From Paludibacteraceae bacterium (GTDB taxonomy: Bacteria > Bacteroidota > Bacteroidia > Bacteroidales > Paludibacteraceae), in the NCBI GenBank assembly GCA_045629285.1, contig JAZQQY010000038.1, forward strand, positions 691 through 64,690: a DNA stretch of 64,000 bases, read 5' to 3'. Positions 10,289-64,000 of the stretch are shown piece after piece; the first letter of the stretch is position 1; every line of letters begins with the position of its first letter. The notes under the pieces are model-generated. The model was given only the letters and a program-made list of their open reading frames with translations. It was not told the DNA's origin and searched no databases. A program made the position numbers and the translations under genes.

Positions 10289-10310
10289 CAGCGTAAAAAA
10301 AAAATAAAAA

Positions 10311-12560: not shown

Positions 12561-12579
12561 CAAAAAGACTATTGATATA

Positions 12580-21425: not shown

Positions 21426-22512
21426 CGTTTCGGCGGTGTTGGGAATCCTTCTGATGTTGATTGCCACATCTTGCGACAGACGTCAGCTTTGGGACGAGTG
21501 GGACACTCTGGTGCCAATAGACATTAACGTCAACTGGAGTCAGAGCCGCTGGGCCGAATTCGACGAGGGTGCTGCTCCTACAGGAATGTCTATTTATGCC
21601 TACGATCAGATGGGCAAGCAGCAGAATGTAGTGAAGGTGACAAACGATCTTGAACATGTTGAGCTTAAGCTATACGACGGTGATTGGAACGTGTTTGTGT
21701 TCAACCAGTCTATTATGGAATACGCGTCGCTCCAGTTTAGAGGAATGGATAAATACGCGTCGGCACAGATCGAGACAATTCCTCAATCATCACGATGGTT
21801 CGCAGCCTCACGTGCTGAATGGGTGACACGTTCGAACTCTCCTTGGGCGGTGCAGACTCGTGCTACTCGAGCTCAAGCCACAAGAGACGGAACGCGTGCC
21901 GACGAATACTCACTCACAACAAAGCAGCCAATCTGGTTTGCCAGCGACTGCCACGAGGGTGTGATTATCGACGAGGACAAGATCATAAGAGATTTTACAC
22001 CACACACTCGTTTCGACAACGGTATATTCTATACTAAGTCGGCGATCATCAAGATGGGAGTGAAGGTTCATTTCAAAGGATTCGCAAACCTTTACACTGT
22101 AAGATCTGTAATAAGTGGTGTAGCAAAATCCTACAACATCAGCAAGATGCATTCTCAATATGAGATGACAGCGCATGAGTTGACAGGATGGGAAAGCAAA
22201 GCAGAGACAGATAGCACAGGATATGTGGAGACATCATTCCAGACATTCGGCTTGATAGATGGCTATTCTTATCAGCCGGAAGAGCTTTATCTTCATTTGG
22301 ATGTGATGCTTCGCGACGGTGAGACAGTTATGACCTACGATTTGCCAGTGGGCGGTTTGGTCAAAGAGACAGAAGACAAAGATTTAGATTTGATCATAGA
22401 GATTAAGGATCCGCTTGAACTTCCAGACGTGGAGGTGAACGAAACAGGTAACGGATTCGAAATCACGGTGAGTGATTGGGAGGATGAGATCAATATCGAC
22501 ATCGATTTGTAA
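21412..22512 (+). CDS. fimbrial lipoprotein, anchor-class candidate (FimB/Mfa2 or DUF5119-like)
   Basis: Lipobox LIATSCDRRQLWDEWDTLVPIDINVNW. Overlaps the upstream gene by 14 nt. ATG 21412 is preferred over the track's GTG 21406. Confidence 0.5.
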   Translation: MLRNSVSAVLGILLMLIATSCDRRQLWDEWDTLVPIDINVNWSQSRWAEFDEGAAPTGMSIYAYDQMGKQQNVVKVTNDLEHVELKLYDGDWNVFVFNQSIMEYASLQFRGMDKYASAQIETIPQSSRWFAASRAEWVTRSNSPWAVQTRATRAQATRDGTRADEYSLTTKQPIWFASDCHEGVIIDEDKIIRDFTPHTRFDNGIFYTKSAIIKMGVKVHFKGFANLYTVRSVISGVAKSYNISKMHSQYEMTAHELTGWESKAETDSTGYVETSFQTFGLIDGYSYQPEELYLHLDVMLRDGETVMTYDLPVGGLVKETEDKDLDLIIEIKDPLELPDVEVNETGNGFEITVSDWEDEINIDIDL

Positions 22513-22553
22513 AAAAGAAACAAAAGGAAAAAACAATTAAAAAATTTATTAAC

Positions 22554-23933: not shown

Positions 23934-23958
23934 TCAAATAATAAGATATTATTCGGCG

Positions 23959-23978
23959 AAGGTGCAAACTGCACCTTT
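23959..23978 (+). terminator. hairpin after the pilin gene (weak terminator)
   Basis: AAGGTGCA / TGCACCTT 8-bp stem with only a short T tract. Confidence 0.4.
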
Positions 23979-24009
23979 GCTGAATATATTTAATAACGTT
24001 AACAAAATT

Positions 24010-24035
24010 GGTTATAGAAGTGAGATTCTATAACC
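24010..24035. other. perfect 10-bp stem-loop in the inter-pilin spacer
   Basis: GGTTATAGAA gtgaga TTCTATAACC. Confidence 0.5.
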
Positions 24036-24225
24036 AGTCTATTTAAGCGATCTTTAATACAATGCATAGTTCATAATGCATAATTCATAATTGGCGAACA
24101 CGCTCGTAGAGACGCACGGACGTGCGTGTAAATCAATTAATTCGTCCCCGAAGGGGGACACACAACCAAAGGTTAACGTAATCGATTGCTTTTTGCGAAA
24201 CAAAATGCTGTCGGAAAAAAGAGAA

Positions 24226-25569
24226 ATGATGAGAACTGTACGATTCAACATGTTTAAATTAAGCTGGCTGGCAATTTCATTGTCGGCATTGTTTGCGTCG
24301 TGCAAGGAAGATGTGGAGGAGGATGTCGTAGCGGAAAAGAGGAATGCAAATAGCAGTGTTATCTCTTTCTCCACATATACGGCTGGAGCAACACGTGCTA
24401 ACGATGTTACAATAGCTGACTTTTTAAGTAAACAAAATAGCGGAATAGCATTCAAAGTTTCGGCTTGGAAAGCTAATTCAACCGATTATTTCTTCATGGC
24501 TGATACCCGTAATAATATAGGCACTGCAGATGGCAAATTGGAAAAAGAAAATGGTATTTTCGATACAATGGATCAAACTTACTATTGGCCGTTGTCAAGT
24601 GGTGATTATCCAATCAGTTTCTATGCATTTAATGATGGTGTAAGAGCAAGTTGGAATAATTCAAAAACACCTAAAGAAGTATCATTTTCGGTTCAGAATA
24701 CTGCTGCTAATAACTACGATTTGGTCGTTGCATATGCAAGAGCAGAGGAGAAGCCGGAGAATGGAGTGTTACCATTGAACTTTATCCATGCTCTTTCAAA
24801 AGTGAATTTTTCATTTGTAGGAGCGGACGAAGATCTCTATATATACACTGTCAACAAAGTGGAGATTATCTCTGCAGGTTCGAAGGGAGTGGTTTCGTTT
24901 AAGAAGTCAACAGAGGTAGGATCGAGTGCCAAGCCATCACAGATGATAGCGTGGAATTATACACAAATAAATGATATATCATTTTCAAAACCTTTGGTAA
25001 AAGCCACTGGTGCCGGTCAAGGATTCCTTTGCAAATACTATGATAAAGCTGCTGGTTTTACCACTGGAGGCCAGGATGCTGTAAGAAATGAAAATTGCCG
25101 ATTGATTCCCCAGAAAGGTAAGATAGCCATACGTGTATATTACAAAGTAGAATACAAGGATTCCAAGAAGTTGAAAGGAAATTGTGGTTTCTATGAGACA
25201 GACAGAGAAGGAAATCATAATGTGATGCTTGATTCGGATGGTAAGGTTGTCACTTCTGGAGGTATAAATAAGTATACATCAGGAGGTATAAAAGGATGTA
25301 AGACGTTGGTTGTCGATTTAGGAAAGGATGTTCCGGAGTGGGAGCCAAGCAAGGCATACCGTTTTACTTTGACATTGCCAACAGCAAGTTTCAGAGGAGA
25401 CTTTAGTGGAGATGGTGTCGCTGACGACAGAGATGAGTTTGGCAAGGATTCGGATGGCGACGGTGATGACGATGTATCTGAGTTCAAATCATCAAATCCT
25501 ATATTGTTCTCAGTAAAGGTTAACCCATGGGCATCTGTAGAAGCCAGCGGTAACATTACAATCAATTAA
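24226..25569 (+). CDS. fimbrillin paralogue (type V pilin)
   Basis: MMRTVRFNMFKLSWLAISLSALFASCKED lipoprotein signal. It is collinear with the 22554 pilin (SFSTYTAGATRA, LNFxHALSKVNFSFVG, IAIRVYYKVE, KAYRFT(M/L)TLPT). The start is uncertain among ATG 24205, 24226 and 24250. The track's 24091 start is an extension. Confidence 0.7.
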   Translation: MMRTVRFNMFKLSWLAISLSALFASCKEDVEEDVVAEKRNANSSVISFSTYTAGATRANDVTIADFLSKQNSGIAFKVSAWKANSTDYFFMADTRNNIGTADGKLEKENGIFDTMDQTYYWPLSSGDYPISFYAFNDGVRASWNNSKTPKEVSFSVQNTAANNYDLVVAYARAEEKPENGVLPLNFIHALSKVNFSFVGADEDLYIYTVNKVEIISAGSKGVVSFKKSTEVGSSAKPSQMIAWNYTQINDISFSKPLVKATGAGQGFLCKYYDKAAGFTTGGQDAVRNENCRLIPQKGKIAIRVYYKVEYKDSKKLKGNCGFYETDREGNHNVMLDSDGKVVTSGGINKYTSGGIKGCKTLVVDLGKDVPEWEPSKAYRFTLTLPTASFRGDFSGDGVADDRDEFGKDSDGDGDDDVSEFKSSNPILFSVKVNPWASVEASGNITIN

Positions 25570-25610
25570 TTCAATTATTAACCGTTAATTATTAATTGTT
25601 AATTAGAAAG

Positions 25611-26957
25611 ATGGACGTACGACTACATAACATAACAATCAAATGTATGCTGGCAATGACGTTGCCGGCTTTGTTTGCGTCGTGCAAAGACGAGATAGAG
25701 GAGCCAGTACAAGCGTCGTCTTCAAAAGGAAGTGCGATTACTTTTAAGCCTTATCAGGATGGATTCCAAAAACCAGTGACCAGAGCTCTTGTTGATAGTG
25801 TGGGAGATTTGAATAATGTCTATGTGCTTTCAATGAGACATGATCAGACTCATATGCTAAATGGGGATTTTCATCCCGATTATTGGGAACAGGTGTTTAG
25901 AGACAACGCTTTGAATAAAGGGATCAACGTCTTGACTCTTAGTAATAACGGTCACACAAATGATGTGGGAATATGGGATTATACAGGATCCTCTCCACTT
26001 GAGGATTGGGAGGATGGCTATTTCTATAAATTTAGAGCCTACTACCCAAACACCTTTAATACTGCAGAAGGAGAGTCGTGTGCCAATGGATTTGAATATA
26101 ACACTGTAGGAGGTATTCCAACTGGATCAACGGCTTTGATGCTCAACGACTATAGGTCTGCTTCGGATCCAAGAAATAACACGGATATGCTTGTGTCAAA
26201 TGAGGAGACGAGAGCCTATTCCGACGCCCTTTGGAACGACGAGGCGGTGGAATTGAAGATGAACCATATCTTGTCATGCGTCAACTTCAACATCAAGAAG
26301 AAAGAGGGAACAAAGCTAACAATCACTTCATTCAAGATAAAGGATTATGTTTCAAAAGCTTCTTATGATGGAAGCGATTGGAAATACGCGCAACAGGAGT
26401 ATAGTGGGGCAAATGTAGGGAATATCTTAAATGATTTCGACTTTTATAATATGGATGGATCTCCATTGGCGGTAGGAAATGGAGATCTACATGGCAATGG
26501 AAACGGCAACAAGTTGAAGGATAAGGAATTTTATGTTGAGTATAAAGGCGGTTCGGGAGGAAATGTGACATTATCTACATATTCAGCTGAACTTTCTGAT
26601 GTCAGCAAAAGCACTATACCAACCACTACGACGTTGCTTGAGAATTATTGCACAGGGTTGCTTATGATACCTCAGACCTTGTCTGGCAAAAGCGAGGTGA
26701 TTAAAATTGAGCTTGGAAATACAATAAAAGAGGCTCAGATTAATCATAATGTCCAGGCAGAGATCAAATTCTATTTTGATGAAGCGTCTGCAACAGTTCT
26801 TACAGCAAGAATTGATTTGACAGCAAATGGAAAAATTCCTGCGTGGGAACCAGGTGTGAAATATACATACACTATTGGAGTTTTTGAATATCAAGTGGCA
26901 GTAAACATTGATGTGGAAGCTTGGCAGAAACATGCTTATGAGGAGGAGTTGAAATGA
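25611..26957 (+). CDS. fimbrillin-family lipoprotein (accessory pilin candidate)
   Basis: MDVRLHNITIKCMLAMTLPALFASCKDE lipobox. Contains LKMNHILSCVNFNI (compare LNFTHALSKVNFSF in the pilins). Confidence 0.6.
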   Translation: MDVRLHNITIKCMLAMTLPALFASCKDEIEEPVQASSSKGSAITFKPYQDGFQKPVTRALVDSVGDLNNVYVLSMRHDQTHMLNGDFHPDYWEQVFRDNALNKGINVLTLSNNGHTNDVGIWDYTGSSPLEDWEDGYFYKFRAYYPNTFNTAEGESCANGFEYNTVGGIPTGSTALMLNDYRSASDPRNNTDMLVSNEETRAYSDALWNDEAVELKMNHILSCVNFNIKKKEGTKLTITSFKIKDYVSKASYDGSDWKYAQQEYSGANVGNILNDFDFYNMDGSPLAVGNGDLHGNGNGNKLKDKEFYVEYKGGSGGNVTLSTYSAELSDVSKSTIPTTTTLLENYCTGLLMIPQTLSGKSEVIKIELGNTIKEAQINHNVQAEIKFYFDEASATVLTARIDLTANGKIPAWEPGVKYTYTIGVFEYQVAVNIDVEAWQKHAYEEELK

Positions 26958-28777
26958 AAAAAGTTAAATATATATACAAGTTTTTTATAGTATTACTATT
27001 CGGATTATTCTCATTTGCTTGCAGCGACGACGATATTGAACAGGGAGATGAGAATGAGTTGTCAGAGTATAGTGGGGAACCAATACAGACATCATTCAAG
27101 GTGTGTGTCTCGGCTCCTGATGTTAGTGTGGATGTAGACGGGGTTACTCGTGCAGGGGATAATGCTAATATTGACTATGCTATGCCAGAGAATGGAGGTC
27201 GATTCCAGAATATTGTGATTCTTGTCACAGACAATAGTAATAAAGTTTATGGTCTACATTGCAATAAGTGGTATGATACCAAAGATGATCCTACATCCTT
27301 TGGTATGAAAGATTATGAGTATATATTTCCAGACATGAAAATTAACGATACGAAAGCTAAGGTATATGTGTTTGGAAATGTGAGTGCAGATGTGTATGAG
27401 ACAATTTGTGGTTATAAACCTAATGAAAATCCTACATATTTGTCAAGAGCTCATATGAATGAAATAAACCTATTAGTCAATACTCATAATATAAGTGTAG
27501 AAGAGAAAAACCTTTATAATATCAGATTTAAGCCAAAGGAAGGAAATTTTAAGGTAGGAGATACAGAAGTCACTACTTATTGTACAGGTATGCCAGTAAA
27601 TGCAATGGCAACATCCGATGTGAAAAAAGGATCTACAGTTTTTAATGTTCATATGAAGCGTGTCTGCGCAAGATTGCAGGTGACATTCAGAAATTTTACG
27701 GGAAAGACTGATTACGATGATACATATTATGGTATTGGTTCAAAAGGAAACAGAGTGTATGTAGATAATTTTGTGTTGAAGAAAGCACTTGCTACCAGCA
27801 CAAAATATTTTTATAATGGTACTGCTCCTTCTTCAGCTACTGTTGACTTTGATATTTTAGCCGCATTAGGTGGAACTAACAATCATGAATGCAATATGAT
27901 TGAAAATGGAGAAAGTAAAACTGTATCTCTATATGTGTTTGAGTCGGTAGGAAACCAATCAAAGACAGTAACAGTGGATAAGAAAACCCAAGTGACTACA
28001 AAATATTACACTTATGATTTGAAAGTAGATAGAGGCAAGAGTTTGGGACAACAGGTTCAAGAACTTCAAGACGACAATGTCTATGTAATGTGGAGTGATA
28101 ATCTGGACCCTAAAGGGAATGGCTTGTTTGCTGGGGATTATCATAACACATTTAATCGTTGTCTAGGTGCTGATGATAATAATATAGTTTACAATGATTT
28201 GAGGATGGACAGTCCTGATAAAATACCATATGGAACATATACGGATGCTAATAAATATGGAAACAGAGTTTTTTGGCATTATAATGACGGAAGATTCCAA
28301 AGTTGTAAAGTGAATTTAAATACAGATGAATGTGAATTGACGAAAAAATATATAGGGGAAAAAACGGCAAGTATCTTTAATCAGCCTGCTTATGAAACGA
28401 AATTACAAAATAGTGGTCATTCGTTTACCATATCACCACAATACTTTGATGGGTTTAATCGAATAGCTTTGAAAGTAGCTGGAAGTTCTTATATGATGAT
28501 ATCAAATGATATTCTAAAAGCAAGATATATTTCTGGCATAACTACTCCTACTAAATCAACTAACCCCTGGGTATTTTTTGCCAAATACATCATCAAGAAT
28601 GGAGAGGCATTCTCTACTGGCACTGGAACAAGCAAGACAGATATCCAACAAATTGAGCGCAATGGCAGTTACGAGCTAGATTTCTCTGTGATGCCAAACT
28701 ACGATACAAAGCAGGAGTTGCTTGTGAATTGTGTGAGAAAGCAGAGTGAGATCTCTTGGAGTGAGACGCAGAAGTAG
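26954..28777 (+). CDS. large pilus-associated lipoprotein (tip/adhesin candidate)
   Basis: ATGA overlap with the upstream gene. Lipobox LFSFACSDDD. 607 aa. MKRVCARLQVTFRN resembles the pilin core strand. Confidence 0.5.
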   Translation: MKKVKYIYKFFIVLLFGLFSFACSDDDIEQGDENELSEYSGEPIQTSFKVCVSAPDVSVDVDGVTRAGDNANIDYAMPENGGRFQNIVILVTDNSNKVYGLHCNKWYDTKDDPTSFGMKDYEYIFPDMKINDTKAKVYVFGNVSADVYETICGYKPNENPTYLSRAHMNEINLLVNTHNISVEEKNLYNIRFKPKEGNFKVGDTEVTTYCTGMPVNAMATSDVKKGSTVFNVHMKRVCARLQVTFRNFTGKTDYDDTYYGIGSKGNRVYVDNFVLKKALATSTKYFYNGTAPSSATVDFDILAALGGTNNHECNMIENGESKTVSLYVFESVGNQSKTVTVDKKTQVTTKYYTYDLKVDRGKSLGQQVQELQDDNVYVMWSDNLDPKGNGLFAGDYHNTFNRCLGADDNNIVYNDLRMDSPDKIPYGTYTDANKYGNRVFWHYNDGRFQSCKVNLNTDECELTKKYIGEKTASIFNQPAYETKLQNSGHSFTISPQYFDGFNRIALKVAGSSYMMISNDILKARYISGITTPTKSTNPWVFFAKYIIKNGEAFSTGTGTSKTDIQQIERNGSYELDFSVMPNYDTKQELLVNCVRKQSEISWSETQK

Positions 28778-47312: not shown

Positions 47313-50300
47313 TTACCTCAACAAAGTAAAGTGTCCGAAATAGACCTTATCGATGGCATCGATACTCAATTCGTACCAGTAGTCGGAGCTAGGCATTGCA
47401 ATTCCGTTGTATGTTCCGTCCCACTCATCGTCATTCGATGCTTTTAGTGTAGTTAACAGTTTGCCATGACGGTTGTAGATTCTCATCGTAGTGTTAGGAT
47501 AGATCTTCACTGCATCAGGAATCTTTAGTGTGGCGTTATCGCCGTCGCTATCTGGCTCTATAAAGTTTTGAATGACAAATTCAGGCTCTGTTATAACGAA
47601 GGTTGTGTCGGTTTTGCATCCGGCAATGTCTATGATGCTCAACGTGTGTTTGCCAAAACCTAAATTATATTTCACATTGTCTGTGACATCTTTGGCTGTA
47701 GATTTTCCGTCTACGATAAATTGATATTCTCCTGCCGACGACATGTTGATCTGTACGTCATCAAGGCCGATAGAGTCGACAGATGCCAATTTCGGTGTGG
47801 CTCCGACCATCAATACGAACTCTTTTTCAAGAATGCACTTTCCACGGTAAGCGGTAACATAATATTTGTTTTCCACTCCGTTAGGCACAACTGTGATTAT
47901 TGCGGAATTTGAGTGGTCGTGTTCCCAATCGTATCTTTCTGCTTCCAATGCACTGGCATCCAGCGTTGTGCTATCGCCTTCACACATGATTGTTCCGGCT
48001 TCGATATTTCCGTTCATTTGAGGATGGACATTTACATCGACAGTCTTTAGCTGTTGAGCGCAGTCGCCGTTGCGGATCACAACGTTATAGCTCTGTGAGG
48101 TATATGGCTTTAACGTTGCGGATGCCCCTTTGTTAGCGGTGACGATATCGTTTCCTGTTGACCATGAGTAAGATACCTTGTCGCTGTTTGGCGATATCTC
48201 AATGTCGACTTCTACTACATCACCCTGACAGATTGTGTCTGCCGATTGAGAAATGGCAATATTTAATGGTGGGTAGATGTCTGGGTCTCTATCAGAAACA
48301 AATCCGATGAATGAACATCCGTCGCATAGTAGGGTATATGTGTATTCTCCTATATCGGAAGCGGATACGTTGCTGATCCTCAATGTTTTTGTGTCTTTGA
48401 CGACTTCTTCTTCGTCTCTATACCATGTTACTTTGCATCCATCCACATTGCTTATTATAGCTGAAATCTCTCCTCCGTAGCAACTGCTCCATTTTGTAGT
48501 TTCCACAATAGGACTTGCTGTCATTACCGAGACGTTGAATGAGAATGATGTCTCGCAGTCGTTCGCGTAGATTACGGAATATGAGCCGTCTCCTGATATC
48601 GTGAATCTTGCTACGTTTCCGTCAAACGAATAAGTGCCTAGATCTGTGTTCCCCTTTCTTACGGTAAAGTCGGATGACGTGTGCTCTACTGTCGCTTCTA
48701 CGACAATTTCGTTTCCGCAACTGTTGAATGTCACGTTGTCCAGTGAGGATGATGTTCGTGCCTTGTTGCCTTCTGTAAATTGGATTTTTCCTCCTACTTT
48801 ACTTGTGCCGACGGAAATGTCCCAAGTGCCGCTTGCCTGGCAAACTCCAGTATTAACTGTGCAGCTAAGAGTTAAGTCGCGGATTCCCATCGTTACGTCC
48901 ACTGTCGAAGATGCCGTATTTGATATAGCTTCAGGTGAATCGCAGCTCCATGTCGTGCGGTCGAAACTTGTGGTATTGCCGTCTCCCGACACTGTGACCT
49001 TTCCGTCTTTGCCCGGACATAGATGATCGTCTCCGCTTATCTTCATTCCGAGTGAATCCGCCACGACATTGACAGATGCCAGTTCACTCCAGCATTTGTC
49101 TCCATTCACTAATTCATATCTTTTTGCATAGAATGTGTGGGTGCCTTTCTTTTTGATTGGAGCGACTGTCGTCAACTCATTTTTATCAGCATCGTACCAT
49201 TGTAAGTTTGAACTTGAGCTTAGTTGCGACAACTGAATTTCCTTCGTATCGTTAAGGCACAAAGATGCAGGAGTAGTCGACGGAATGGCCGGCTGACTTA
49301 CGGTGATAGTCATAGGCACGATCGGACCGGACAGATTACGTGACAGTTCTGTTTGCCTGATATATATCGTTTGTATGCCAGTGGCTGACACGTTTAATGG
49401 ATATGCGAAGTGAGTTTCGCCGGCAGATAGTGACATTGCACCGCTCATGTCGGCATTTTTACTGATACTCAAAGAGTAGTGCGAGGTGTTGTCTGACGCA
49501 TCCACAGTTTTGATTATCGCGTCGAATCCGTCTGCTGCGCGTGGATCGTTGATGCAGAACTCCAGGTTGTCGGCAACAGGGGATGGACATTCGAACAGGT
49601 CTGCTTGGAACGTCCAGTTTGCAGTTTCTGAGCACGCTCCGTCATTCACGACGGCTGTAAGAGTGACGGGAGTTCCTCCCATCTTGACGGTCACGTCTTT
49701 CTTGTCGGCATCACCTATAATGGATCCCGCAACATTACTGCTCCATGCGATTGTCTGATTGCCGCTGCCTGTTATCGTAAGTTCGGATTTGCCGGTTTCG
49801 CCTGGCAACAAAACGTTGTCTCCTGAAATCGCCACATTAAGGGCGTCGACGTGTATTGTGGCAGTAGCGATTTCACTATGGCACTGAGTTCCGTTTACAA
49901 TTTCCGATTTTTGCGCGCTGACTACGATGTCTCCGCGTTCCACTGTGCTGACACTTCCTGTTATGATGCTGTTGCTAGCGTCTCTCCAGATTATGCCGGC
50001 TTCATTGCTGATTGACGACAGCTCTACGCTTTGTGTAGAGTTTGCACATACGGATTTGTTTGTCAATGCAGGTGCAACAGGTTGCTTTACAACAACTTTG
50101 AATGGAACGACTACGCTGTATTGATCGTCTGTTATCTGTTGCTGGCGTACGTAGTATGTTGTTGTGCCAGCTTTGGTTACATCGAATGCAAAATTAAAAT
50201 GGGTCTCTCCTGCAGAAAGAGTGACGGCATCGCTCATATCAGCGTTTTTGCTGAATTGTAGGGCATAGTTTGCCACGCTTTCTCCTGCCTCGCCAGCCAG

Positions 50301-51368
50301 ACCGAGTTCTGCATCAAAACCGTCGCTTGCTTGTAGATCTCCCACGCAGAATTCTTTGTCGCTGACTGTCGGTGTCGGCACAAGATATCTCAAAAGATAT
50401 AGTGTGGTAGTCTTGAGAGGAGTGCTGCATCCACAGTCTTTCTGGACTGTATATTGGTCGATAGTAGAGCCCGACTTGGTAGGAACTGGTGGGATATAGT
50501 TCTCGAAGTCGGCTATGACGTTCCCGTCCGGACCTCTCCAGATAAGGTCGCAGTTGTTTTCGTTGTTGTCTACCAGTTCTGTCCCGTGCTGTTCCAACGC
50601 TTGCTCCAGAATGGTCTTTGTATAGAATCCGTTCTTGATATCGGAGGGCCCGTAGTTTACGTATGATTTGCTTAGATGTGCGGCTCCGTTTCCGATGACG
50701 GAAAGCTTGAGTTCAACTCCTTTGCTGAAACAGTCGCCATCCTTTATGGCAACTCTGTAAATATGGTCGCCTTCACCCAGAGAGCCGATGTTCATGTAGT
50801 CCCAAAGACCGAGGGCATTGCCATCTTCATCGTACCAATGGTATTTGCCGGACGTGTATTTGCCGACGAACGTACTGACCGATGACGGCATTTTCCCGGC
50901 ACAATAAGGTTCGAATTGAGGAGCAGTGATATCCTTGATGTGGATGGCATCGAATGTGATCTCCTCGACCCAGCTGCCTGCACTTCCGTCTGCCGGCGTG
51001 ATTCTGACATAGTATGTCTTGGAAACTGTCTTCTCGTTTTCCGGGTTGAAGATTCTTCTGTCGACTGTATAGCTGACTCTGGTAGGGTCAACGTCGGAAT
51101 ATGCTTTTAGCGCTTTGGATACAGTTCCGACATCTGCTAAATCTTCATATATTTCGGCATTGATATTGCCTAAATCCAAAGCATCCTTATTGGCTGCTGT
51201 GACTTGGATTTTTGCAGTGTTCTCCAAGTCGCACATGAAGAAATTGCCGTTTTGGGCTCGGTGGATATTGCTCAAGACAAGGAATATAGGGTCGGCCAGC
51301 GTAGTGGTTACGCCGGCAAGAGAAATCAAAGTGAGAAAACACTTTGCTATGCCCTGTCTGATATTCAT
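47313..51368 (-). CDS. 1351-aa Ig-like repeat adhesin with T9SS type-B (gliding-motility-associated) C-terminal domain
   Basis: The C-terminus ...KIYPNTTMRIYNRHGKLLTTL...WDGTYNGIAMPSSDYWYEL...GHFTLLR fits the type-B CTD pattern. Contains a tandem ~260-aa internal duplication. Confidence 0.8.
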   Translation of the reverse strand: MNIRQGIAKCFLTLISLAGVTTTLADPIFLVLSNIHRAQNGNFFMCDLENTAKIQVTAANKDALDLGNINAEIYEDLADVGTVSKALKAYSDVDPTRVSYTVDRRIFNPENEKTVSKTYYVRITPADGSAGSWVEEITFDAIHIKDITAPQFEPYCAGKMPSSVSTFVGKYTSGKYHWYDEDGNALGLWDYMNIGSLGEGDHIYRVAIKDGDCFSKGVELKLSVIGNGAAHLSKSYVNYGPSDIKNGFYTKTILEQALEQHGTELVDNNENNCDLIWRGPDGNVIADFENYIPPVPTKSGSTIDQYTVQKDCGCSTPLKTTTLYLLRYLVPTPTVSDKEFCVGDLQASDGFDAELGLAGEAGESVANYALQFSKNADMSDAVTLSAGETHFNFAFDVTKAGTTTYYVRQQQITDDQYSVVVPFKVVVKQPVAPALTNKSVCANSTQSVELSSISNEAGIIWRDASNSIITGSVSTVERGDIVVSAQKSEIVNGTQCHSEIATATIHVDALNVAISGDNVLLPGETGKSELTITGSGNQTIAWSSNVAGSIIGDADKKDVTVKMGGTPVTLTAVVNDGACSETANWTFQADLFECPSPVADNLEFCINDPRAADGFDAIIKTVDASDNTSHYSLSISKNADMSGAMSLSAGETHFAYPLNVSATGIQTIYIRQTELSRNLSGPIVPMTITVSQPAIPSTTPASLCLNDTKEIQLSQLSSSSNLQWYDADKNELTTVAPIKKKGTHTFYAKRYELVNGDKCWSELASVNVVADSLGMKISGDDHLCPGKDGKVTVSGDGNTTSFDRTTWSCDSPEAISNTASSTVDVTMGIRDLTLSCTVNTGVCQASGTWDISVGTSKVGGKIQFTEGNKARTSSSLDNVTFNSCGNEIVVEATVEHTSSDFTVRKGNTDLGTYSFDGNVARFTISGDGSYSVIYANDCETSFSFNVSVMTASPIVETTKWSSCYGGEISAIISNVDGCKVTWYRDEEEVVKDTKTLRISNVSASDIGEYTYTLLCDGCSFIGFVSDRDPDIYPPLNIAISQSADTICQGDVVEVDIEISPNSDKVSYSWSTGNDIVTANKGASATLKPYTSQSYNVVIRNGDCAQQLKTVDVNVHPQMNGNIEAGTIMCEGDSTTLDASALEAERYDWEHDHSNSAIITVVPNGVENKYYVTAYRGKCILEKEFVLMVGATPKLASVDSIGLDDVQINMSSAGEYQFIVDGKSTAKDVTDNVKYNLGFGKHTLSIIDIAGCKTDTTFVITEPEFVIQNFIEPDSDGDNATLKIPDAVKIYPNTTMRIYNRHGKLLTTLKASNDDEWDGTYNGIAMPSSDYWYELSIDAIDKVYFGHFTLLR

Positions 51369-56960: not shown

Positions 56961-57033
56961 GGTGCCATAGCTCAGTTGGTAGAGCAAAGGACTGAAAATC
57001 CTTGTGTCCCCGGTTCGATTCCTGGTGGTACCA
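56961..57033 (+). tRNA. tRNA-Phe (anticodon GAA), no encoded CCA
   Basis: Acceptor GGTGCCA/TGGTACC, anticodon stem AAGGA/TCCTT with loop CTGAAAA, T-loop TTCGATT. The T-stem has one C-U mismatch (CCCGG/CCTGG). Confidence 0.88.
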
Positions 57034-57041
57034 CTTCAAAT

Positions 57042-57119
57042 GGTCTTATAGCTCAGTTGGTTCAGAGCATCTGCCTTACAAGCAGAGGGTCCTAGGTTCG
57101 AATCCTAGTGAGACCACCA
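57042..57119 (+). tRNA. tRNA-Val (anticodon TAC), CCA encoded, copy 1
   Basis: Acceptor GGTCTTA/TGAGACC, anticodon stem TCTGC/GCAGA with loop CTTACAA, T-arm CTAGG-TTCGAAT-CCTAG. Confidence 0.93.
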
Positions 57120-57182
57120 ACGTAGGAACGTCGCGTTAGTGCGTTCAAAATTGTAGAGATGTCGCGTCAGCGAGTCTAGATT

Positions 57183-57260
57183 GGTCTTATAGCTCAGTTG
57201 GTTCAGAGCATCTGCCTTACAAGCAGAGGGTCCTAGGTTCGAATCCTAGTGAGACCACCA
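57183..57260 (+). tRNA. tRNA-Val (anticodon TAC), copy 2, identical
   Basis: Same 78 nt as copy 1, offset by 141 bp. Confidence 0.93.
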
Positions 57261-57262
57261 AC

Positions 57263-57295
57263 GTAGAGACGTTGCGTTAGCACGTCTCTTTTTTT
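57263..57295 (+). terminator. Rho-independent terminator of the tRNA cluster
   Basis: GTAGAGACGTTGC gtta GCACGTCTCT followed by TTTTTT. Confidence 0.7.
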
Positions 57296-57601: not shown

Positions 57602-60600
57602 ATGAATAAAGGCTTATTAACTCTAATATCCAGTATTGGACTTTTTCATGCAGTGTCGTCGTCGGCACAGTGTGTTGTTGCTAGTACTGATTTTGACACA
57701 AGCACTGATCTATGCTGTCCGATTTTGACTCCGGATGAAGATGGATGGTATAGTGAAGATCTTGACTGGAAAACACTCTGTAAGTCGAATATGTTTGTCG
57801 GACCTGAATATGCTGTTCAGGGAGGAATCGGTGGTGCATTCTCTAGTCAGGCTAGTGATAATATGACAAAGGTAGATGATGTATTTCATCTTGGTAGTCA
57901 AATTCAAAAAGGAGATGGCCAATATGGTTATTCTACTGTTACGGCACAACCAAAGCTTATACACTCTTTCTGTAAAGCAAATGATGATGCGAATAACATG
58001 TATGTCAATGTCGGTTCTGCCGATAATTCTCAATTTTTGACTTATACTGTATATGGATTGAATCCCGGATCTGATGTAGAGTTGTCGTTTACATTGTATA
58101 ATCTGTTGGATCCATCGTATTTTGAATATCTTACCGACAATGTTCTTGGTGGTACAAAAATAATGCTAGATTTTATCACTAAATATAACATTTCAAACAC
58201 TGGTAATATTACTGGTCAGCCGTTGGGACTAGGTGTGATTTCTACAGATCAAGATATCTCATATAACACAGGATACAATAACTCTATCCAGTTACAACCG
58301 ACTACTAAATATACGTCTGCTACGGCTGGATTTGGAAAGTCAACTGTTGTGACTCATAAGGCAAAAGTTACAGCGACGGGTTCCATCTCTTTCCTTTTCT
58401 TCCGTACAGGCGACTGTTTCCAGATTCCTATCGGTATTGATGACATAAAGGTGACAGGTAGTATCAAACCTGTTATTACAAGTACTGGTAATCCATGTCC
58501 TCAGATGCCGATGCGTGTGATTACTAAGTCTACTTATCCGTCCGGAACAAAGTTCTCTTGGAAAGAGTCTGTAACAGGACAAACTTCCACAGACCCAAGT
58601 TTCAATTTCACTCCGGATGCTGCCGAGACAGATTATAGCATCTCTCTTGAAGTGACTTTGCCAGGATGTACGCCATCTAAGGCAGATGTTTATCCTGTTC
58701 ATTCAGGAACTTGTTGTACAAATGACGATGGAGCTCCGATGGCGAAGACCAATTTGTTCTTTGACGACTTTGGTAGTTTCCCATCTGATGATACATACGA
58801 GTGGACTGATAGATTTGGAGTGACTCATACAGTAAAGATTCCTGCCGGACAGGTTCATGAAGCGCAGTCGCATACTGGAAATCCTAAAATTCCTTATGTA
58901 AAAGCATATAATATTGAGGCGAGCGGCGCAACTTTGACTGTACCTCCACTTGGTACTGGAGGTAAGACTGAGTTGTACAACCATGGCGCTTACGCCGTTT
59001 CTAAATATGGAGGATATCCTCAGGGTGTACAGTATGATAATTCAGGAACTCAAATTGGTGGTATGCTTCAGTTTGACCTGCTGGACAATGGAACGCAGGA
59101 TAACTTTTTTGAAATAGATGTTGAACATATCTGTACTGGAAAGGAGATCTCTTTTGGTGCTGATTTCGCTTCTATTTCTAATCACCCGGGTTCTATTGAG
59201 GTGGTTTTGGAACATAGCGGAAATGTTCTAGACAGTCAGTACAAGTATTTTTCAGGAGGTGCTGATGGATGGAAGAATGCAAGTAATTCTTTTGTCATAA
59301 ATTCATCGGATGTAGGTGGTGCATCTGAGGTAACAATCACCATGAAGGTGAGACATTACGGAAAGATGGAAGATGGTTCGGATATTACCGGAGAGACTCG
59401 TGACTATGCTATCGATAATATCATTTTCCAGGTTTGTACTCCTCCTGATGTCAATGTGGAGTCTTCTGTTTCTACTGGTAAGGATATCCTTGACTTGTGT
59501 ACTGAGGATGTGTTGAAATTGACTTCTGTAACTTCAGAAGCCGTAAAGAGATTCTATTTGTATAGTAATAAGCAGCTAGATCCAAATAAAGAGGTTGGTT
59601 ACGTTTATCAGTACACTTTCCAGGATCCATCTACAGAAAGTGACACTAATCCGATTACATGGGAGACTCTTCATAGAGAAGAGGTTGTTAAGACAGAGTC
59701 ATTTGATGTAAAGGTTGAGGATTATTGGGATGATATCTTCTCTCAGCTTGGTGATGATCCGACTCACGAGAAGCGTATCTATTTCCGTGTGGTTGTGGGA
59801 GAATATTCAGATTTGATTGCAGACCAGTCTTGGAAGAAGAACTCTGCGTTCTCTCCATGTCGTAAGATTTCAATCTCTACAATTCCGGTTGTGGCAGGTT
59901 TGAACTGTGCCGCATGTGAGAAGGTTAAGGAGGCATCTATAATTTCAGCTGATCCTTCGACCGTAATCACAACTAATGCAAATGGAGAGAAGGAGGTTCA
60001 CCTATGTCTTGGTGAAATCGCTCACTTGACAACTGAGAAGTTTGCTCCGACAGACCCTACTGTTATGGGTATTACTGTCGGTTCGGACAAAGAGCCTCGT
60101 AAGTATTTGGCTTCTTGGATCAGAGGAAGAAAGGAAGCTGCAGGAAAACCAGGTGCTGGTTATACTCCTGGAGATGAGACTTCTTCATTTGATGTGACTT
60201 GGGAAAATGCAGATAAATATTATCTATTGGTTAAGGATATCGAGTTCCCTGGTGAAGATGGACAAAGCTGTTGGGTATACGATAGTATCAATGTCATCGG
60301 TTATGACAAGCCAACCGACAAGCTGACAGATCCAGCCCCATTCTGTGAAGGAATGTTGTCGTCAGAGCCGGACAAGAGCATGTCTGGATTCAAGATCCAG
60401 TGGTACGAGAGCGACGCCGATACGACAGCATCGGCGGAGATTCCGGAACCAGAAATCGGCAAGGTCAAGAAGGCCGACATGCCCAAGACGTTCCACTACG
60501 TAGTGACGGACGAGAACGGCTGCCGCGGCGAGGTGAACGACTACGAGGTGGTGGTGAACAAGGCGGAGAGGAACAACGTGGAGAGCGGCTCGAAGATCGA

Positions 60601-63600
60601 GTACCGCAAGAACGACGCGAAGGGAGGCAAGACGCTGAAGCCGCTCGACCAGCAGAACGCGCGCGTGTTCAACGCGGCTCAGACAACGGCAGGCCACAAG
60701 CTGATGATAGGGCTTATCGTTGGGGCGGAGGAATCCACCACACCGGACACCGCGACAGCGACATTCGGAACGGCAAGCACTACGATGCCAACACCAGCGG
60801 TGAAGGACGCGGACAACTCGGACGACGAGTACCTATGGTACTACACGTACCTGGAGACAGACGAGGGCTGCGTGAGCGACACTGTGTTGGTGGGCGTAGC
60901 GATCATGGGAGCACCTGCACCGAAGACAGAGAACGCCGAGTACTGCGTCAACTCGACGACGGTGAGGGCGATGAAGTCCTACGCGACACCGTCGGTGGAG
61001 GACCCGACAGGCACACTTGTCTTCTACGGAACGGACAAGACGACGACAATGGACGGGGACGACCTTCCTGACGTGACGGCACCGGGCAAGTACACGTACT
61101 GGGTGAGCCAGGTGAGCTCGACAGGCGGCGGGGAGAGCTCGAAGCAGCCGGTCGAGATCGAGGTGTACGGAGTGAGCGGCGTGACGATCAGCCCGGCATC
61201 CGACAAGTACTGCAAGGGATCGACGGAGGCCAAGCTCGACGGTCTGGCGTCGGAGGTCGCGTCCGGCGACAGCTACGTGAAGTCGTCCGGCTGGGAGTAC
61301 TTCAAGGGCACGGAGCCGGCGGCCAACGAGAAGACGGCCGGAGCCGAGAGCACGATGGACATCTCCACAGCCGAGACAGGCCAGATAGAGTATTTCGCGC
61401 GCATGACATACACCATCGCAAGCACAGGCGAGGTCTGCTACGGAGCGCACAAGAAGTTCACGGCCGAGGTGCAGTCGGTCGACGACCCGATAACGAACCC
61501 GATCACGTACCTGAAGAGCGAGGGCGCGTCGGGCGGTTTCAGGGCCCCATTGGCCCAGAACCCCGACGGAGTGATAGGCGACGCGTCGTGCGGCGACTGC
61601 AGCATAGAGTGGTACAGCGACGCGGCCGGAACGACCAAGATCACGGAGGCGCAGGCCACACCGATATACGACAGCAACCTTCAGGGCAACGACGAGAAGA
61701 CGTATTATGTGAAGCAGGTGAACAGCCTAGGCTGCGAGAGCTCTCTGGTTCCGGTGAAGATCATCGTGTCGGGCTATCCGACGCCGACGGTGAAGAACAT
61801 CTCGGTATGCGAGAACTCCGACCGCTTCACAGGCGAGATACAGGCGACGATCAACGGAACGACGGCAGACCCTGCGGGCCACTTCAAGCTGGTGTGGTAC
61901 AAGCAGGATCCCGTCACAAAGCAGGCCGACAAGACAGTGGAGTTCAACTGGATAGATTTCGACGCTAATAAGCACCAGTCGCTGTCCGAGGACATCCCGA
62001 CAATATACACATACTACGTGCTTCAGCGCCTTTTGGACCCGTACCAGCCGGTAGCGGGTCAGGTGGCGGAGAGCGCGCTGGTTCCGATGACGGTGACGGT
62101 GTATCCGACGCCGAAGCTGACCAAGCTGGTGACAGACCCGAAGTGCAAGGGCGAGAACCAGAAGCTGTCCGAGATGTACACGGTGCAGCCGGTGGACTGC
62201 GAGGTGTACAAGCTCAACCAGTCCACAAGCGAGAAGCTTCCTAGCGACGAGGTCACTGAGGCCGGAATCTACGAGGTCACTGGATCGTACGTGATCAACA
62301 AGGGCCAGGCCGACGAGGAGACATGCAAGTCGTTGACGGAGGAGCTTAAGGTTGTGTTCCACGAGCTTGACGCCGGCATCGTCGGATCCGACAGGACATG
62401 TCCGGGAGTGGGCGTCGACCTTGACGCGGACGTCACGGTCGGCGGAGGCTTGGCGCTTAACGAGGTGATGTACTCGTGGAGCAACGACCTGAACTCTACG
62501 GCAGAGACGACGAAGACATACAACACGGGAGCCGGCGGACTTAACGCTGCGGGCGACATCATGAAGGTGACGGTGGAGGTGTCCAGCCCGGCCTGCAAGG
62601 GATCGTACGCGGTGAAGAAGACACACGCCATCAAGGTCGGCGACGGTCCTCTTATCGGAAACATATCGTTCTCCGAGCCGAAGAACTCAGAGACGAAGAG
62701 CGAGCTGATCTCGTCGAGAAACATATCGTTCAACTCGTGCGGCGGCAAGGTGTCGGTAGAGCTTAGCGGCATCGCCAACAAGGACGGCGGCAGCTACACG
62801 TTGAGCGGGGACGCCAGCGAGAGCGGCTCGTTCGGAAGCGAGACATCCGGAACTGCCACGCTCAGCCTCGGCGAAGGAAGCTACACGGTGGAGTTCGTGA
62901 ACGAGTGCCCTACGAAGTTCAGCTTCGAGATCATAGACTACAGCAACACGGCCAGATCGACAAACCACGACATGACGATCTGCGAGGACGAGAAGTGGTT
63001 CGCGGAGATCCTCGACATCAAGGGCCCATCCCCAAGGATCGAGTGGAAGCACGACGGGGTTCCGATGGCCGGCGAGACAGGCACGAAGATCCAGTTCAAC
63101 CAGTCCAAACCGTCTGACAGCGGAGTGTACACATACGCGCTGTACTCCGCAGGATGCGAGTACAACGGCAAGATCGCGTTGGGCGACGCGCTAAAGGTGA
63201 AGCCGATCGCGGAGTTCAAGAGCAGCTCCTACCAGACGAGATACGAGGTCGTGAACGGCAAGCAGCTCCAGATCGACATGGACTTCAACGTCCCAGCGAA
63301 CAAGAACGACATAGACGCGGACGTGACATGGAAGGACCAGAGCGCGGGCTTCAGCGCCAAGACATCCAGCGTGACGATCGATCCGGTCACAAGGGACTAC
63401 AACCTGCACGTGGTGGCAGAGAACGACGACTACTGCAAGGCGGAGGCGGAGATCGCGGTGCTTGTGGACGCCAAGCTTAAGATAGAGGCCGAGCTGGAGC
63501 GCGTGCTCATGTGCGAGGGCGAGACCAACCACATCTACGTGGACACGACGGGAACAGGCAAGATCCTTCATCCGGAAGGCTTCGTGTTCACTGTGACGGA

Positions 63601-64000
63601 GGTGACGTCATCGGGAAGCAAGACGATCTCGCTCCACAGGGACGGAGACAGGCTTTCCGGCGAGATCAGCCCGACATCCGACGCCCAGTACACGGTGACA
63701 TACACATACACGAGCGACAGCCAGGACGAGAGCGTTACGCTTCCGTTGACGGTGAAGGAGAAGTTCCAGGTGGAAATCGCCGAGGTGGATCCGGTCTGCG
63801 AGGGCGACATCGCGACAGTGACAGTGAAGAACGTCTATCCTAGCGGAACGACCCTTGACTGGAGCGATAACCCGTCCGACGAGTATGTGAACGGATCGAT
63901 GTCCGGAGCGACGTTCGAGCCGAAGCACGACCAGGGAGGCGTTGCCCCTCAGGTGAAGAGATATTCGGTCGTCGCCAAGAACGGATTGTGCCAGGACAAG
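57602..64000 (+). CDS. giant secreted Ig-like-repeat adhesin (at least 2133 codons, 3' end outside window); not present in the supplied ORF track
   Basis: I translated the frame from ATG 57602 codon by codon to position 64000 without meeting a stop. It starts MNKGLLTLISSIGLFHAVSSSAQC (signal peptide). From ~aa 900 it has repeated modules with the W(Y)...YY(V)xQ...GC(E)S...V.V.V signature, like the type-B T9SS protein at 47313..51368. Confidence 0.85.
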   Translation, partial: MNKGLLTLISSIGLFHAVSSSAQCVVASTDFDTSTDLCCPILTPDEDGWYSEDLDWKTLCKSNMFVGPEYAVQGGIGGAFSSQASDNMTKVDDVFHLGSQIQKGDGQYGYSTVTAQPKLIHSFCKANDDANNMYVNVGSADNSQFLTYTVYGLNPGSDVELSFTLYNLLDPSYFEYLTDNVLGGTKIMLDFITKYNISNTGNITGQPLGLGVISTDQDISYNTGYNNSIQLQPTTKYTSATAGFGKSTVVTHKAKVTATGSISFLFFRTGDCFQIPIGIDDIKVTGSIKPVITSTGNPCPQMPMRVITKSTYPSGTKFSWKESVTGQTSTDPSFNFTPDAAETDYSISLEVTLPGCTPSKADVYPVHSGTCCTNDDGAPMAKTNLFFDDFGSFPSDDTYEWTDRFGVTHTVKIPAGQVHEAQSHTGNPKIPYVKAYNIEASGATLTVPPLGTGGKTELYNHGAYAVSKYGGYPQGVQYDNSGTQIGGMLQFDLLDNGTQDNFFEIDVEHICTGKEISFGADFASISNHPGSIEVVLEHSGNVLDSQYKYFSGGADGWKNASNSFVINSSDVGGASEVTITMKVRHYGKMEDGSDITGETRDYAIDNIIFQVCTPPDVNVESSVSTGKDILDLCTEDVLKLTSVTSEAVKRFYLYSNKQLDPNKEVGYVYQYTFQDPSTESDTNPITWETLHREEVVKTESFDVKVEDYWDDIFSQLGDDPTHEKRIYFRVVVGEYSDLIADQSWKKNSAFSPCRKISISTIPVVAGLNCAACEKVKEASIISADPSTVITTNANGEKEVHLCLGEIAHLTTEKFAPTDPTVMGITVGSDKEPRKYLASWIRGRKEAAGKPGAGYTPGDETSSFDVTWENADKYYLLVKDIEFPGEDGQSCWVYDSINVIGYDKPTDKLTDPAPFCEGMLSSEPDKSMSGFKIQWYESDADTTASAEIPEPEIGKVKKADMPKTFHYVVTDENGCRGEVNDYEVVVNKAERNNVESGSKIEYRKNDAKGGKTLKPLDQQNARVFNAAQTTAGHKLMIGLIVGAEESTTPDTATATFGTASTTMPTPAVKDADNSDDEYLWYYTYLETDEGCVSDTVLVGVAIMGAPAPKTENAEYCVNSTTVRAMKSYATPSVEDPTGTLVFYGTDKTTTMDGDDLPDVTAPGKYTYWVSQVSSTGGGESSKQPVEIEVYGVSGVTISPASDKYCKGSTEAKLDGLASEVASGDSYVKSSGWEYFKGTEPAANEKTAGAESTMDISTAETGQIEYFARMTYTIASTGEVCYGAHKKFTAEVQSVDDPITNPITYLKSEGASGGFRAPLAQNPDGVIGDASCGDCSIEWYSDAAGTTKITEAQATPIYDSNLQGNDEKTYYVKQVNSLGCESSLVPVKIIVSGYPTPTVKNISVCENSDRFTGEIQATINGTTADPAGHFKLVWYKQDPVTKQADKTVEFNWIDFDANKHQSLSEDIPTIYTYYVLQRLLDPYQPVAGQVAESALVPMTVTVYPTPKLTKLVTDPKCKGENQKLSEMYTVQPVDCEVYKLNQSTSEKLPSDEVTEAGIYEVTGSYVINKGQADEETCKSLTEELKVVFHELDAGIVGSDRTCPGVGVDLDADVTVGGGLALNEVMYSWSNDLNSTAETTKTYNTGAGGLNAAGDIMKVTVEVSSPACKGSYAVKKTHAIKVGDGPLIGNISFSEPKNSETKSELISSRNISFNSCGGKVSVELSGIANKDGGSYTLSGDASESGSFGSETSGTATLSLGEGSYTVEFVNECPTKFSFEIIDYSNTARSTNHDMTICEDEKWFAEILDIKGPSPRIEWKHDGVPMAGETGTKIQFNQSKPSDSGVYTYALYSAGCEYNGKIALGDALKVKPIAEFKSSSYQTRYEVVNGKQLQIDMDFNVPANKNDIDADVTWKDQSAGFSAKTSSVTIDPVTRDYNLHVVAENDDYCKAEAEIAVLVDAKLKIEAELERVLMCEGETNHIYVDTTGTGKILHPEGFVFTVTEVTSSGSKTISLHRDGDRLSGEISPTSDAQYTVTYTYTSDSQDESVTLPLTVKEKFQVEIAEVDPVCEGDIATVTVKNVYPSGTTLDWSDNPSDEYVNGSMSGATFEPKHDQGGVAPQVKRYSVVAKNGLCQDK

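Follow-up and report, generated by a model that had tools for sequence, protein, structure and literature searches.

The window, a stretch of 64,000 nucleotides (nt) from a Paludibacteraceae bacterium (assembly GCA_045629285.1, contig JAZQQY010000038.1), ends within the gene of a giant surface adhesin of the type IX secretion system (T9SS). The silent-site composition of this gene changes abruptly inside one uninterrupted reading frame. The G+C content at third codon positions (GC3) rises from one third to more than four fifths at a module joint and remains high up to the window end. We consider it probable that the gene is a recombination mosaic with a C-terminal lineage that is maintained in a GC3-rich state. 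In this model, the modules of the adhesin would be shuffled by recombination at their borders, and the gene would combine a type-1 N-terminus, a module of about 125 residues from an ordinary low-GC3 lineage and, from nt 60353, a long-lived GC3-rich lineage of C-terminal immunoglobulin-like (Ig-like) modules. The sharpness of the step would be due to its being a recombination joint, at which DNA segments that differ in compositional state meet.

The frame is open from nt 57587 to the window end and comprises, from the ATG at 57602, 2132 visible codons without a stop. Across 60250-60400, the windowed GC content increases from 0.40-0.45 to 0.58-0.64 and GC3 from 0.2-0.45 to 0.7-0.98, while the first (GC1, ~0.5) and second (GC2, ~0.43) codon positions stay flat. 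We located the step as a maximum-likelihood change point in per-codon GC3 with a support interval of two log-likelihood units, which placed it after codon 917 at nt 60353 (interval 60350-60365). Upstream of this point 303 of 917 codons end in G or C (0.33), downstream 1014 of 1215 (0.835; chi-square 560, p = 7e-124). Computed profiles and change point agree with the first-pass annotation of this DNA, in which a sharp GC and GC3 switch within an uninterrupted frame had been read from the letters by eye. The hand counts given there are reproduced for G+C (25/60, 35/60 and 40/60) and nearly identical for third positions on recount (22/59 in 59941-60120 and 81/89 in 60451-60720).

Third positions of the GC3-rich part, in the following called the block, are occupied by C (0.41), G (0.43), A (0.11) and T (0.06); in the N-terminal part T alone accounts for 0.46. 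The block uses AAG (80/81), GAG (84/89), GAC (78/83), AAC (50/51) and TTC (28/28) almost exclusively, the first four as already listed by the annotation, and avoids ATT (0/54) and AGT (0/104) completely. Its GC skew is ~0.1. The anomaly had also been rightly described as local: outside the block every 1-kb bin of the window stays at or below 0.50 GC, the 37 other open reading frames (ORFs) of the window have a GC3 of 0.29-0.58, and the maximum for any open stretch of 300 codons in 1-57000 is 0.603. The fimbrillin-like gene at 22554-23933 has the T-ending codon bias that had been ascribed to it (share of T at third positions, T3, 0.45). The gene at 47313..51368 does not encode the same module type, as had been assumed; it is a type-B-sorted distant relative of the adhesin with ~27-30% identity, mainly in the C-terminal sorting domain.

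Homologous DNA was collected from ENA, NCBI, JGI and Logan assemblies (loci L001-L042; L009 is UBA3743), and the relatives compared are Paludibacteraceae-like Bacteroidales from the rumen and the horse gut. The same step is present in at least ten independent assemblies of such relatives, built by different pipelines and assemblers (L001, L003, L004, L008, L009, L010, L021, L023, L025-L032, L037, L038 and L042). The recurrent pattern consists of flanks with 0.39-0.43 GC, a GC3 of ~0.3 in the 5' part, a step at a module joint and a GC3 of 0.6-0.88 up to the stop codon. In L027, a contig of 46 kb, the GC-rich gene has 7-9 kb of ordinary DNA on either side. Within ~0.8 Mb of related loci, stretches of at least 0.53 GC are found essentially only in full-length adhesin genes, with the exception of L024, which comes from a genome with higher overall GC. 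Since independent assemblies repeat the step and have low-GC DNA to its left and right, the step is, as a class of feature, clearly biological and not an assembly error.

Gene order upstream of the adhesin gene is shared between the window and UBA3743 and comprises a distant paralogue, an S8-like protease, two consecutive rhomboid genes, an EEP-family gene and a tRNA-Phe/Val/Val cluster. L001 has a tRNA-Val pair upstream of its GC-rich gene, and L021 and L009 have a downstream tRNA-Asp in common. Four flanking genes are 69-84% identical at the protein level between the window and UBA3743, with a synonymous divergence (dS) from 1.7 to unmeasurable and an equal GC3 in both (0.43-0.54). Since the same tRNA cluster and upstream genes precede the GC-rich gene in L009, the gene is, judged by synteny, at an orthologous locus across diverged species. 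The comparison with related strains that the annotation had proposed finds both the step and the GC-rich gene at orthologous loci, with the enrichment ending at the stop codon.

Some further observations concern the same homologues. The contigs that carry close homologues of the GC-rich gene are mostly short (5-9 kb), or the homologues are partial; assembly apparently tends to stop inside or beside the gene, possibly owing to variation of the block between strains. In L042, the GC-rich gene is called as two genes owing to an in-frame TAG at 4074-4076, where relatives have AAG, and GC3 downstream of this codon is still 0.8. The TAG is either a recent pseudogene mutation or a sequencing error. 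In two distant relatives of 25% identity, L040 (QMCD01000965.1) and L024 (Tb.RUG.361), GC3 increases less strongly between the N-terminal and C-terminal parts, in L040 from 0.25 to ~0.45, and the effect may be common, in weaker form, throughout the adhesin superfamily.

Genomes with a GC3-rich gene also hold an ordinary paralogue with a GC3 of 0.25-0.45 throughout (L016, L017, L022 and L015, plus L002, L007, L011 and L012). In the C-terminal region shared by both lineages, identity is 57-78% among the GC-rich genes and 50-56% between these and the ordinary ones. The block of the window has 57-61% amino acid identity to the blocks of L001, L009, L021, L008 and L010, compared with 50-53% to the ordinary-GC3 paralogues. 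Residues 1 to ~770 show an identity of 0.65-0.78 to L001, L009 and L008 versus 0.31-0.33 to the ordinary lineage. The relationship is reversed at residues ~775-900, where identities per 20-residue window are 0.55-0.85 to L002, L007, L011 and L016 versus 0.05-0.30 to the GC-rich genes, which carry an unrelated module at this place. At about residue 900 the similarity shifts to the GC-rich lineage, and the GC3 change point lies just past this second joint. These identities show the window gene to be composed of three parts, apparently as a mosaic created by recombination. The block is on a deeper branch than the N-terminal part (0.61 versus 0.78 identity to L001), so that the two parts differ in history.

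The switch occurs at the same ...KPTDKLTDPAPFCEG motif in L009, L026, L027 and L004 despite different upstream modules, and in the remaining genes at whichever joint begins their GC-rich modules. Altogether, GC3 change points match module joints in eleven genes. In neighbouring genes with a type-A sorting domain (P0017 and P0020), only the homologue of block part 1 (Table 1) is GC3-rich, and GC3 is ~0.35 again at the sorting domain within the same ORF. Because change points coincide with joints and P0017 and P0020 are enriched over part 1 only, the GC3 state appears to travel with the DNA segment, and the steps would mark recombination joints.

The GC enrichment is limited to silent sites. Over 664 shared alignment columns, the excess of GC-rich over ordinary genes is +0.042 in GC1 and +0.007 in GC2 (confidence interval -0.020 to +0.031), compared with ~+0.47 in GC3, and the GC1 excess mostly stems from silent first positions of Leu codons. 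The ratio R/(R+K) is 0.09-0.21 in both lineages and 0.17 in the window block; V/(V+I), E/(E+K) and A/(A+T+S) are likewise unshifted, and only D/(D+N) and the silent Leu first position are raised in the GC-rich lineage. The codons ACC, CCC, GGG, CGG and CGA, which the host avoids, are also avoided in the block, and ATA (0.26), ACA (0.35), GGA and CTT (0.34) are tolerated.

Silent-site saturation was measured as codon identity at conserved residues only, in excess of the expectation for independent sequences and with close pairs as control. Between the window block and L001, L009 and L021 the excess is 0.11-0.18, with similar values for the N-terminal part, against 0.82-0.93 in the close-pair control. 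At this level silent sites are saturated between the lineages, a turnover that the flanking genes show as well, and GC3 is still 0.83, 0.79 and 0.74 in three of them. As silent sites have turned over yet GC3 stays high, we take it to be actively maintained: a local force must be keeping the block at what looks like an equilibrium state and not a leftover. That this force is segment-specific and heritable, and holds the silent sites of one lineage of adhesin modules at a GC3 of ~0.85 through full turnover in genomes with an equilibrium of ~0.3-0.5, is a broader statement that we put forward as possible rather than likely.

Close haplotypes give an impression of the rates involved. At silent third positions, AT-to-GC differences per AT site amount to 0.145 in the block and 0.034 in the N-terminal part (4.3-fold), whereas GC-to-AT differences are similar (0.111 versus 0.094). 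The implied equilibrium GC3 is 0.57 for the block (0.69-0.76 in two other pairs) and 0.27 for the N-terminal part. In our model, AT-to-GC silent changes would thus be fixed several times more often in the block than in the N-terminal part, with GC-to-AT changes fixed at about equal rate. Outgroup-polarised substitution counts were discarded as biased, since distant outgroups led to contradictory equilibria. The GC3 level varies by lineage: L009 contains patches of 0.34-0.48, among them gene residues 1551-1750 (nt ~11700-12300), in which the protein is still nearest to the GC-rich lineage. An origin of these patches by import from ordinary paralogues was rejected for this reason. The force seems to be weaker in L009, with enrichment that is decaying or a strength that varies along the block.

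The block is also the more variable part of the gene. In close pairs its dS is 1.5-4 times and its nonsynonymous divergence (dN) 3-10 times that of the N-terminal part, and dN/dS reaches 0.14-0.18 versus 0.05-0.08. Differences between haplotypes are patchy, with 20-36 per 120 nt beside windows with 0-6. Of the 30 codons that differ in the closest pair, 29 are located within the block or shortly before it, some clustered and some scattered; nine of them form a cluster at codons 904-939, ahead of the change point of that gene. The patchy differences, the conflicting phylogenies of N-terminal part and block and the module swaps together demonstrate a local excess of recombination in the block, as is expected of a tract under GC-biased gene conversion.

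Codon choice gives further clues to the kind of force. Ribosomal protein genes, analysed in one related genome, have T- or A-ending fourfold codons and never use GCG, GCC, ACG, ACC, TCG, TCC, CCG or CCC, and they prefer NAC, AAG, GAG and CAG. The block uses GCG, ACG, TCG and CCG together with NAC, AAG, GAG and CAG, which means that its twofold codons are extreme in the preferred direction and its fourfold codons go in the opposite one. A uniform push towards G or C at third positions, filtered by tRNA limits, fits this usage better than adaptation to tRNA supply. Among the youngest third-position differences, 11 are GC-to-AT and 2 AT-to-GC, compared with 22:22 among older ones (p = 0.03-0.13, with few differences that are confounded by imports), which hints at a bias in fixation and not in mutation.

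Several other explanations of the composition gained no support. In none of the five other frames does the longest open stretch fall outside the range seen in silent-site shuffles, giving no indication of an antisense or overlapping gene. Tests of 4-mers and 6-mers in four orthologous blocks for restriction, methylation or Chi-like motifs revealed only small codon-pair effects. Conversion between repeat modules within the gene was rejected as well, the sole repeat in the block being one 35-nt pair of 77% identity, and no direct or inverted repeats of at least 30 nt involving the block were detected within 44-64 kb. The annotation had suggested, as one of three explanations, a local process such as GC-biased conversion among the repeat modules. 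Its local character is in agreement with a GC3 that is kept high through silent saturation, but the intragenic modules share no DNA similarity and cannot convert each other.

As the most likely cause we tentatively name a recombination-associated fixation bias, namely GC-biased conversion between divergent alleles and between paralogous copies of the block, although our confidence in it is limited. The nature of the bias is what we infer here, whereas the mosaic, the recurrence of the step, the silent restriction, the saturation and the excess of variability and recombination in the block are seen in the data.

Several results weigh against a mosaic shaped by such conversion. GC-biased conversion fits the link to recombination, but neither the unshifted replacement sites nor the boundary at the stop codon. 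It should act on all sites of a tract, and a per-nucleotide force sufficient for a GC3 of 0.85 should shift nearly neutral amino acid exchanges towards GC, yet GC2 as well as the K/R, I/V, E/K and T/A balances are unmoved. Past the stop codon of orthologues GC is down to 0.2-0.4 within 60-120 nt (0.19-0.42 within 60-240 nt), and this sharp end is more readily explained by a coding-level force, or by conversion restricted to stretches of paralogous homology, than by allelic conversion tracts. Modules are exchanged in the N-terminal region as well, yet its GC3 stays low. Copies of part 1 within one genome are 78% identical at the nucleotide level versus 85-90% for orthologues between genomes. 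The rate estimates are confounded, as tracts imported from other GC-rich alleles look compositionally stationary under any force. Finally, the exact joint of the window is not matched by a second assembly in the protein database, where the best junction-spanning match has 56% identity.

Selection on silent sites, by which G/C-ending codons are favoured for a reason at the level of coding or of the mRNA, may instead be responsible; we rank it second, not far below conversion. As candidate advantages, the last two-thirds of the 7-kb mRNA could be shielded against AU-directed cleavage or 3' exonucleases, which would ensure that the C-terminal secretion signal is translated every time, or elongation could be tuned. 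An effect that is seen only at silent sites, ends at the stop codon in every orthologue, respects the codons avoided by the host and persists through silent-site saturation is what such selection would produce. The predicted mRNA of the block is also far more structured (-47.6 versus -34.0 kcal/mol per 150 nt). This difference arises from composition alone, however: a selected fold was not detected, as codon order adds no structure over silent-site shuffles (z = -1.7, similar to controls). Moreover, the choice of fourfold codons is not the translational optimum of the clade, and the homologous domains in ordinary paralogues of the same genomes do without enrichment. Under selection dS should fall, yet it is raised in the block, and parts of L009 and L008 have a GC3 down to 0.35-0.6 with the gene retained.

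A recent graft from a high-GC Bacteroidota donor that has not yet been ameliorated, the first explanation offered by the annotation, is improbable. The composition far beyond the host range, the adjoining tRNA genes, the deep branch of the block with no close database relative (best match 61%) and the conflicting histories of N-terminal part and block would suit an import. However, GC1, GC2 and amino acid usage of the block are of the low-GC type, as are the tolerated and avoided codons described above; composition of a donor type, as horizontal islands have it at all codon positions and in the amino acids, is not found. Homologues have flanks of 0.39-0.43 GC throughout, save for one 25%-identical gene in a genome of 0.49 GC, and a search of GTDB representative genomes and JGI metagenomes revealed no homologue in a high-GC context. 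The patchy absence typical of islands is not observed either: blocks are present at the syntenic locus in L009, L001, L021 and many assemblies, and many independent imports into the same locus of diverged species would be required. A mobile-element origin was rejected, as no relatives on viral contigs or plasmids were found. Because of the low-GC type of amino acids, the avoided codons that are kept, the syntenic locus and the lack of any donor found, we read the block as not being derived from a high-GC genome. What holds of the graft idea is the recombination mosaic with a step at the joint, but the donor was apparently a lineage of the same family in genomes of ~42% GC.

Even less probable is a local hypermutation with an AT-to-GC spectrum that would diversify the adhesin and at the same time raise its G and C content. 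The raised dS and dN, the concentration of differing codons of the closest pair in or just upstream of the block and the 4.3-fold rate of AT-to-GC at an unchanged GC-to-AT rate all agree with it, but the youngest differences are mostly GC-to-AT (11 versus 2), many differences are clustered like imported tracts and the amino acid composition is unshifted. No candidate enzyme was seen in the flanks, and neither a template/variable repeat pair nor any other repeat was detected in 44-64 kb. A diversity-generating retroelement was rejected for the missing template/variable repeat and since the stretch of 3.6-4.5 kb is too long, with no search made for a reverse transcriptase. An assembly chimera of two templates joined in a conserved domain, the remaining proposal of the annotation, can practically be dismissed: the source is probably a metagenome-assembled genome (MAG) and the exact joint with the ordinary-lineage module is not reproduced by an independent assembly, but the same step occurs in at least ten of these with low-GC DNA on either side, upstream synteny places the GC-rich gene at this locus, two in-frame misjoins within 400 nt would be required and the lineages are too dissimilar to mislead an assembler (excess codon identity 0.054 at equal residues).

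The homologues revealed a partner gene in inverted orientation ~6.5 kb downstream of the GC-rich gene. In L027 the two genes are at 7226-14311 (+) and 20969-23494 (-), and the arrangement is also found in L021, L004 and L009/L028; the window ends before this position. The partner has the N-terminal domain and block part 1 in common with the GC-rich gene and ends in a type-A sorting domain. This neighbouring gene ('geneB') of other genomes shares block part 1 with the window, and geneB of L027 matches window 60755-61768 (blastn). Recent concerted evolution of the two neighbouring part-1 genes was rejected, as identity within a genome is lower than between orthologues. The inverted homology (78% nt identity) could allow an inversion that swaps the C-terminal parts and hence the secretion fate, and a programmed diversification system with the inverted partner gene is a possibility.

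The positions of the adhesin gene, its parts and the tRNA genes next to it are listed in Table 1.

Table 1. Coordinates of the adhesin gene, its segments and the adjoining tRNA genes in the window.
Feature	Position	Strand	Basis and remarks
tRNA-Phe(GAA), tRNA-Val(TAC), tRNA-Val(TAC) cluster	56961..57260	+	ARAGORN; directly upstream of the adhesin gene
Giant adhesin ORF, 3'-incomplete, 2132 codons visible	57602..64000	+	Open frame; Pfam Ig_7; homologues with PF13585/CHU_C
Type-1 N-terminal region, residues 1 to ~774, GC3 ~0.32, mostly T-ending codons	57602..59923	+	GC3 profile, codon table, identities
Module of the ordinary low-GC3 paralogue lineage, residues ~775-900, GC3 ~0.31	59924..60301	+	Identities in 20-residue windows
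GC3 change point, best nt 60353	60350..60365	+	Directly after the ...KPTDKLTDPAPFCEG motif opening the next Ig-like module
GC3-rich block, GC3 0.835, extends beyond the window end	60353..64000	+	GC3 profile, codon table, lineage identities
Block part 1	60542..61768	+	Missing from the ordinary lineage and the second GC-rich locus; alignment gaps

The assignment of the gene to the T9SS adhesins is based on its domains and homologues. It carries the CHU_C-associated Ig-like domain PF19081 (Ig_7) of the T9SS type-B adhesin family at residues 1334-1389 (nt 61601-61768; E = 1.3e-12, 48.3 bits, cutoff 27.3). NCBIfam models gave no match on the visible 2132 amino acids, and the ORF leaves the window before its C-terminus. 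According to their annotation, the homologues (55-61% identity) are proteins of Paludibacteraceae and Bacteroidales MAGs with a T9SS type-B sorting domain, and they have PF13585 at the C-terminus. Orthologues have a length of 2000-2460 amino acids with the type-B sorting domain at the end, and by alignment to them ~250 further codons probably follow beyond the window end. The hydrophobic N-terminus looks like a signal peptide, as judged by eye without a predictor. The N-terminal 770 residues have no match to a Pfam family, and no sequence in the PDB matches the adhesin protein.

Other genes in the window that are typical of Bacteroidales include Mfa-like fimbrillins, a surface glycan-binding protein, MutS and a C10 peptidase. 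Three Mfa-like fimbrillin genes are adjacent (window 22554-26957, 466-1851, 26954-28777). A strongly T-ending usage (T3 0.41-0.46) is found in several genes for surface proteins, among them the adhesin gene in its N-terminal part, and is distinct from that of adjoining housekeeping genes. In window 1-57000, plus-strand genes have T3 > A3 and G3 > C3 (the shares of the respective base at third positions) and minus-strand genes the reverse, which is consistent with the plus strand being the leading strand here and the adhesin gene being co-oriented with it. Next to the adhesin gene, a direct repeat of 104 nt with 95% identity (57041-57144 and 57182-57285) consists of the duplicated tRNA-Val(TAC) with a tail of ~25 nt. 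UBA3743 has three copies of this tRNA-Val repeat, and the copy number of the array thus varies beside the adhesin gene.

The variation of GC content among bacteria and the existence of GC-biased conversion or of selection for GC are long-standing questions, for which the usual evidence consists of differences of a few percent between classes of genes. Here, the ORF serves as its own control, as a GC3 of 0.33 and one of 0.84 exist under a common promoter, transcript, expression level, replication strand and genome. Paralogues with the same domains have a GC3 of 0.3-0.4 in the same genomes, several species and strains are in public data and the competing explanations can be directly tested by frequency spectra, recombination maps and recoding. 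If GC-biased conversion is the true cause, the adhesin would be its strongest and most sharply bounded bacterial case and a natural test bed; if it is selection, giant secreted proteins would have an unrecognised coding-level requirement. In practice, binning, detectors of horizontal transfer and chimera filters would all flag this native gene, and the pattern may explain why these genes are frequently found on short contigs.

In comparison with known systems, the abrupt change of composition beside a tRNA cluster resembles transferred islands adjacent to tRNA genes. It differs from these in that the boundary is within an ORF, silent sites alone are affected and the locus is conserved across diverged species; no mobility genes were noticed in the flanks, for which no dedicated screen was made. 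With SprB-type adhesins the gene shares the giant modular architecture, a likely signal peptide, Ig-like CHU_C-associated domains and type-B-sorted orthologues, but there is no match to a sequence of solved structure, and the first 770 residues belong to no Pfam family. A targeted literature search revealed no description of a compositional step in sprB-type or T9SS adhesin genes, and we know of none in sprB-type genes.

GC-biased gene conversion in bacteria was reportedly proposed by Lassalle et al. in 2015, with recombining genes having a higher GC3. The genome-wide effects reported for bacteria amount to a few percent of GC3. The block resembles such cases in that GC3 is raised in the recombining part against a background of AT-biased mutation, with young differences mainly GC-to-AT and older ones balanced. 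It differs by an increase of +0.5 GC3 within one ORF, by sharp limits at a module border and the stop codon and by an untouched GC2 and amino acid usage.

The vls cassettes of Borrelia have 49.1% GC in a genome of ~28.6% GC, which is conserved across species despite turnover of the sequence (PMC11499132). The vls segment recombines intensively by segmental conversion, and a pressure is considered to keep it rich in GC (PMC11499132). Both systems thus have a recombining surface-protein region that is held GC-rich across species. The vls cassettes, however, have a GC skew of 0.52 and G-runs, compared with ~0.1 in the adhesin block, and they lack promoters and form a contiguous array next to a single expression site, whereas neither a cassette array nor DNA repeats were detected in those flanks of the adhesin gene that are available. 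In the ~0.8 Mb of related loci GC-rich stretches are confined to full-length adhesins, with the one inverted partner downstream of the gene and beyond the window. The adhesin enrichment is further restricted to third positions within a single ORF, that of a T9SS adhesin of a gut commensal. Taken together, we regard the adhesin gene as a new, exceptionally clear-cut form of the locally raised GC known from recombining genes of surface proteins.

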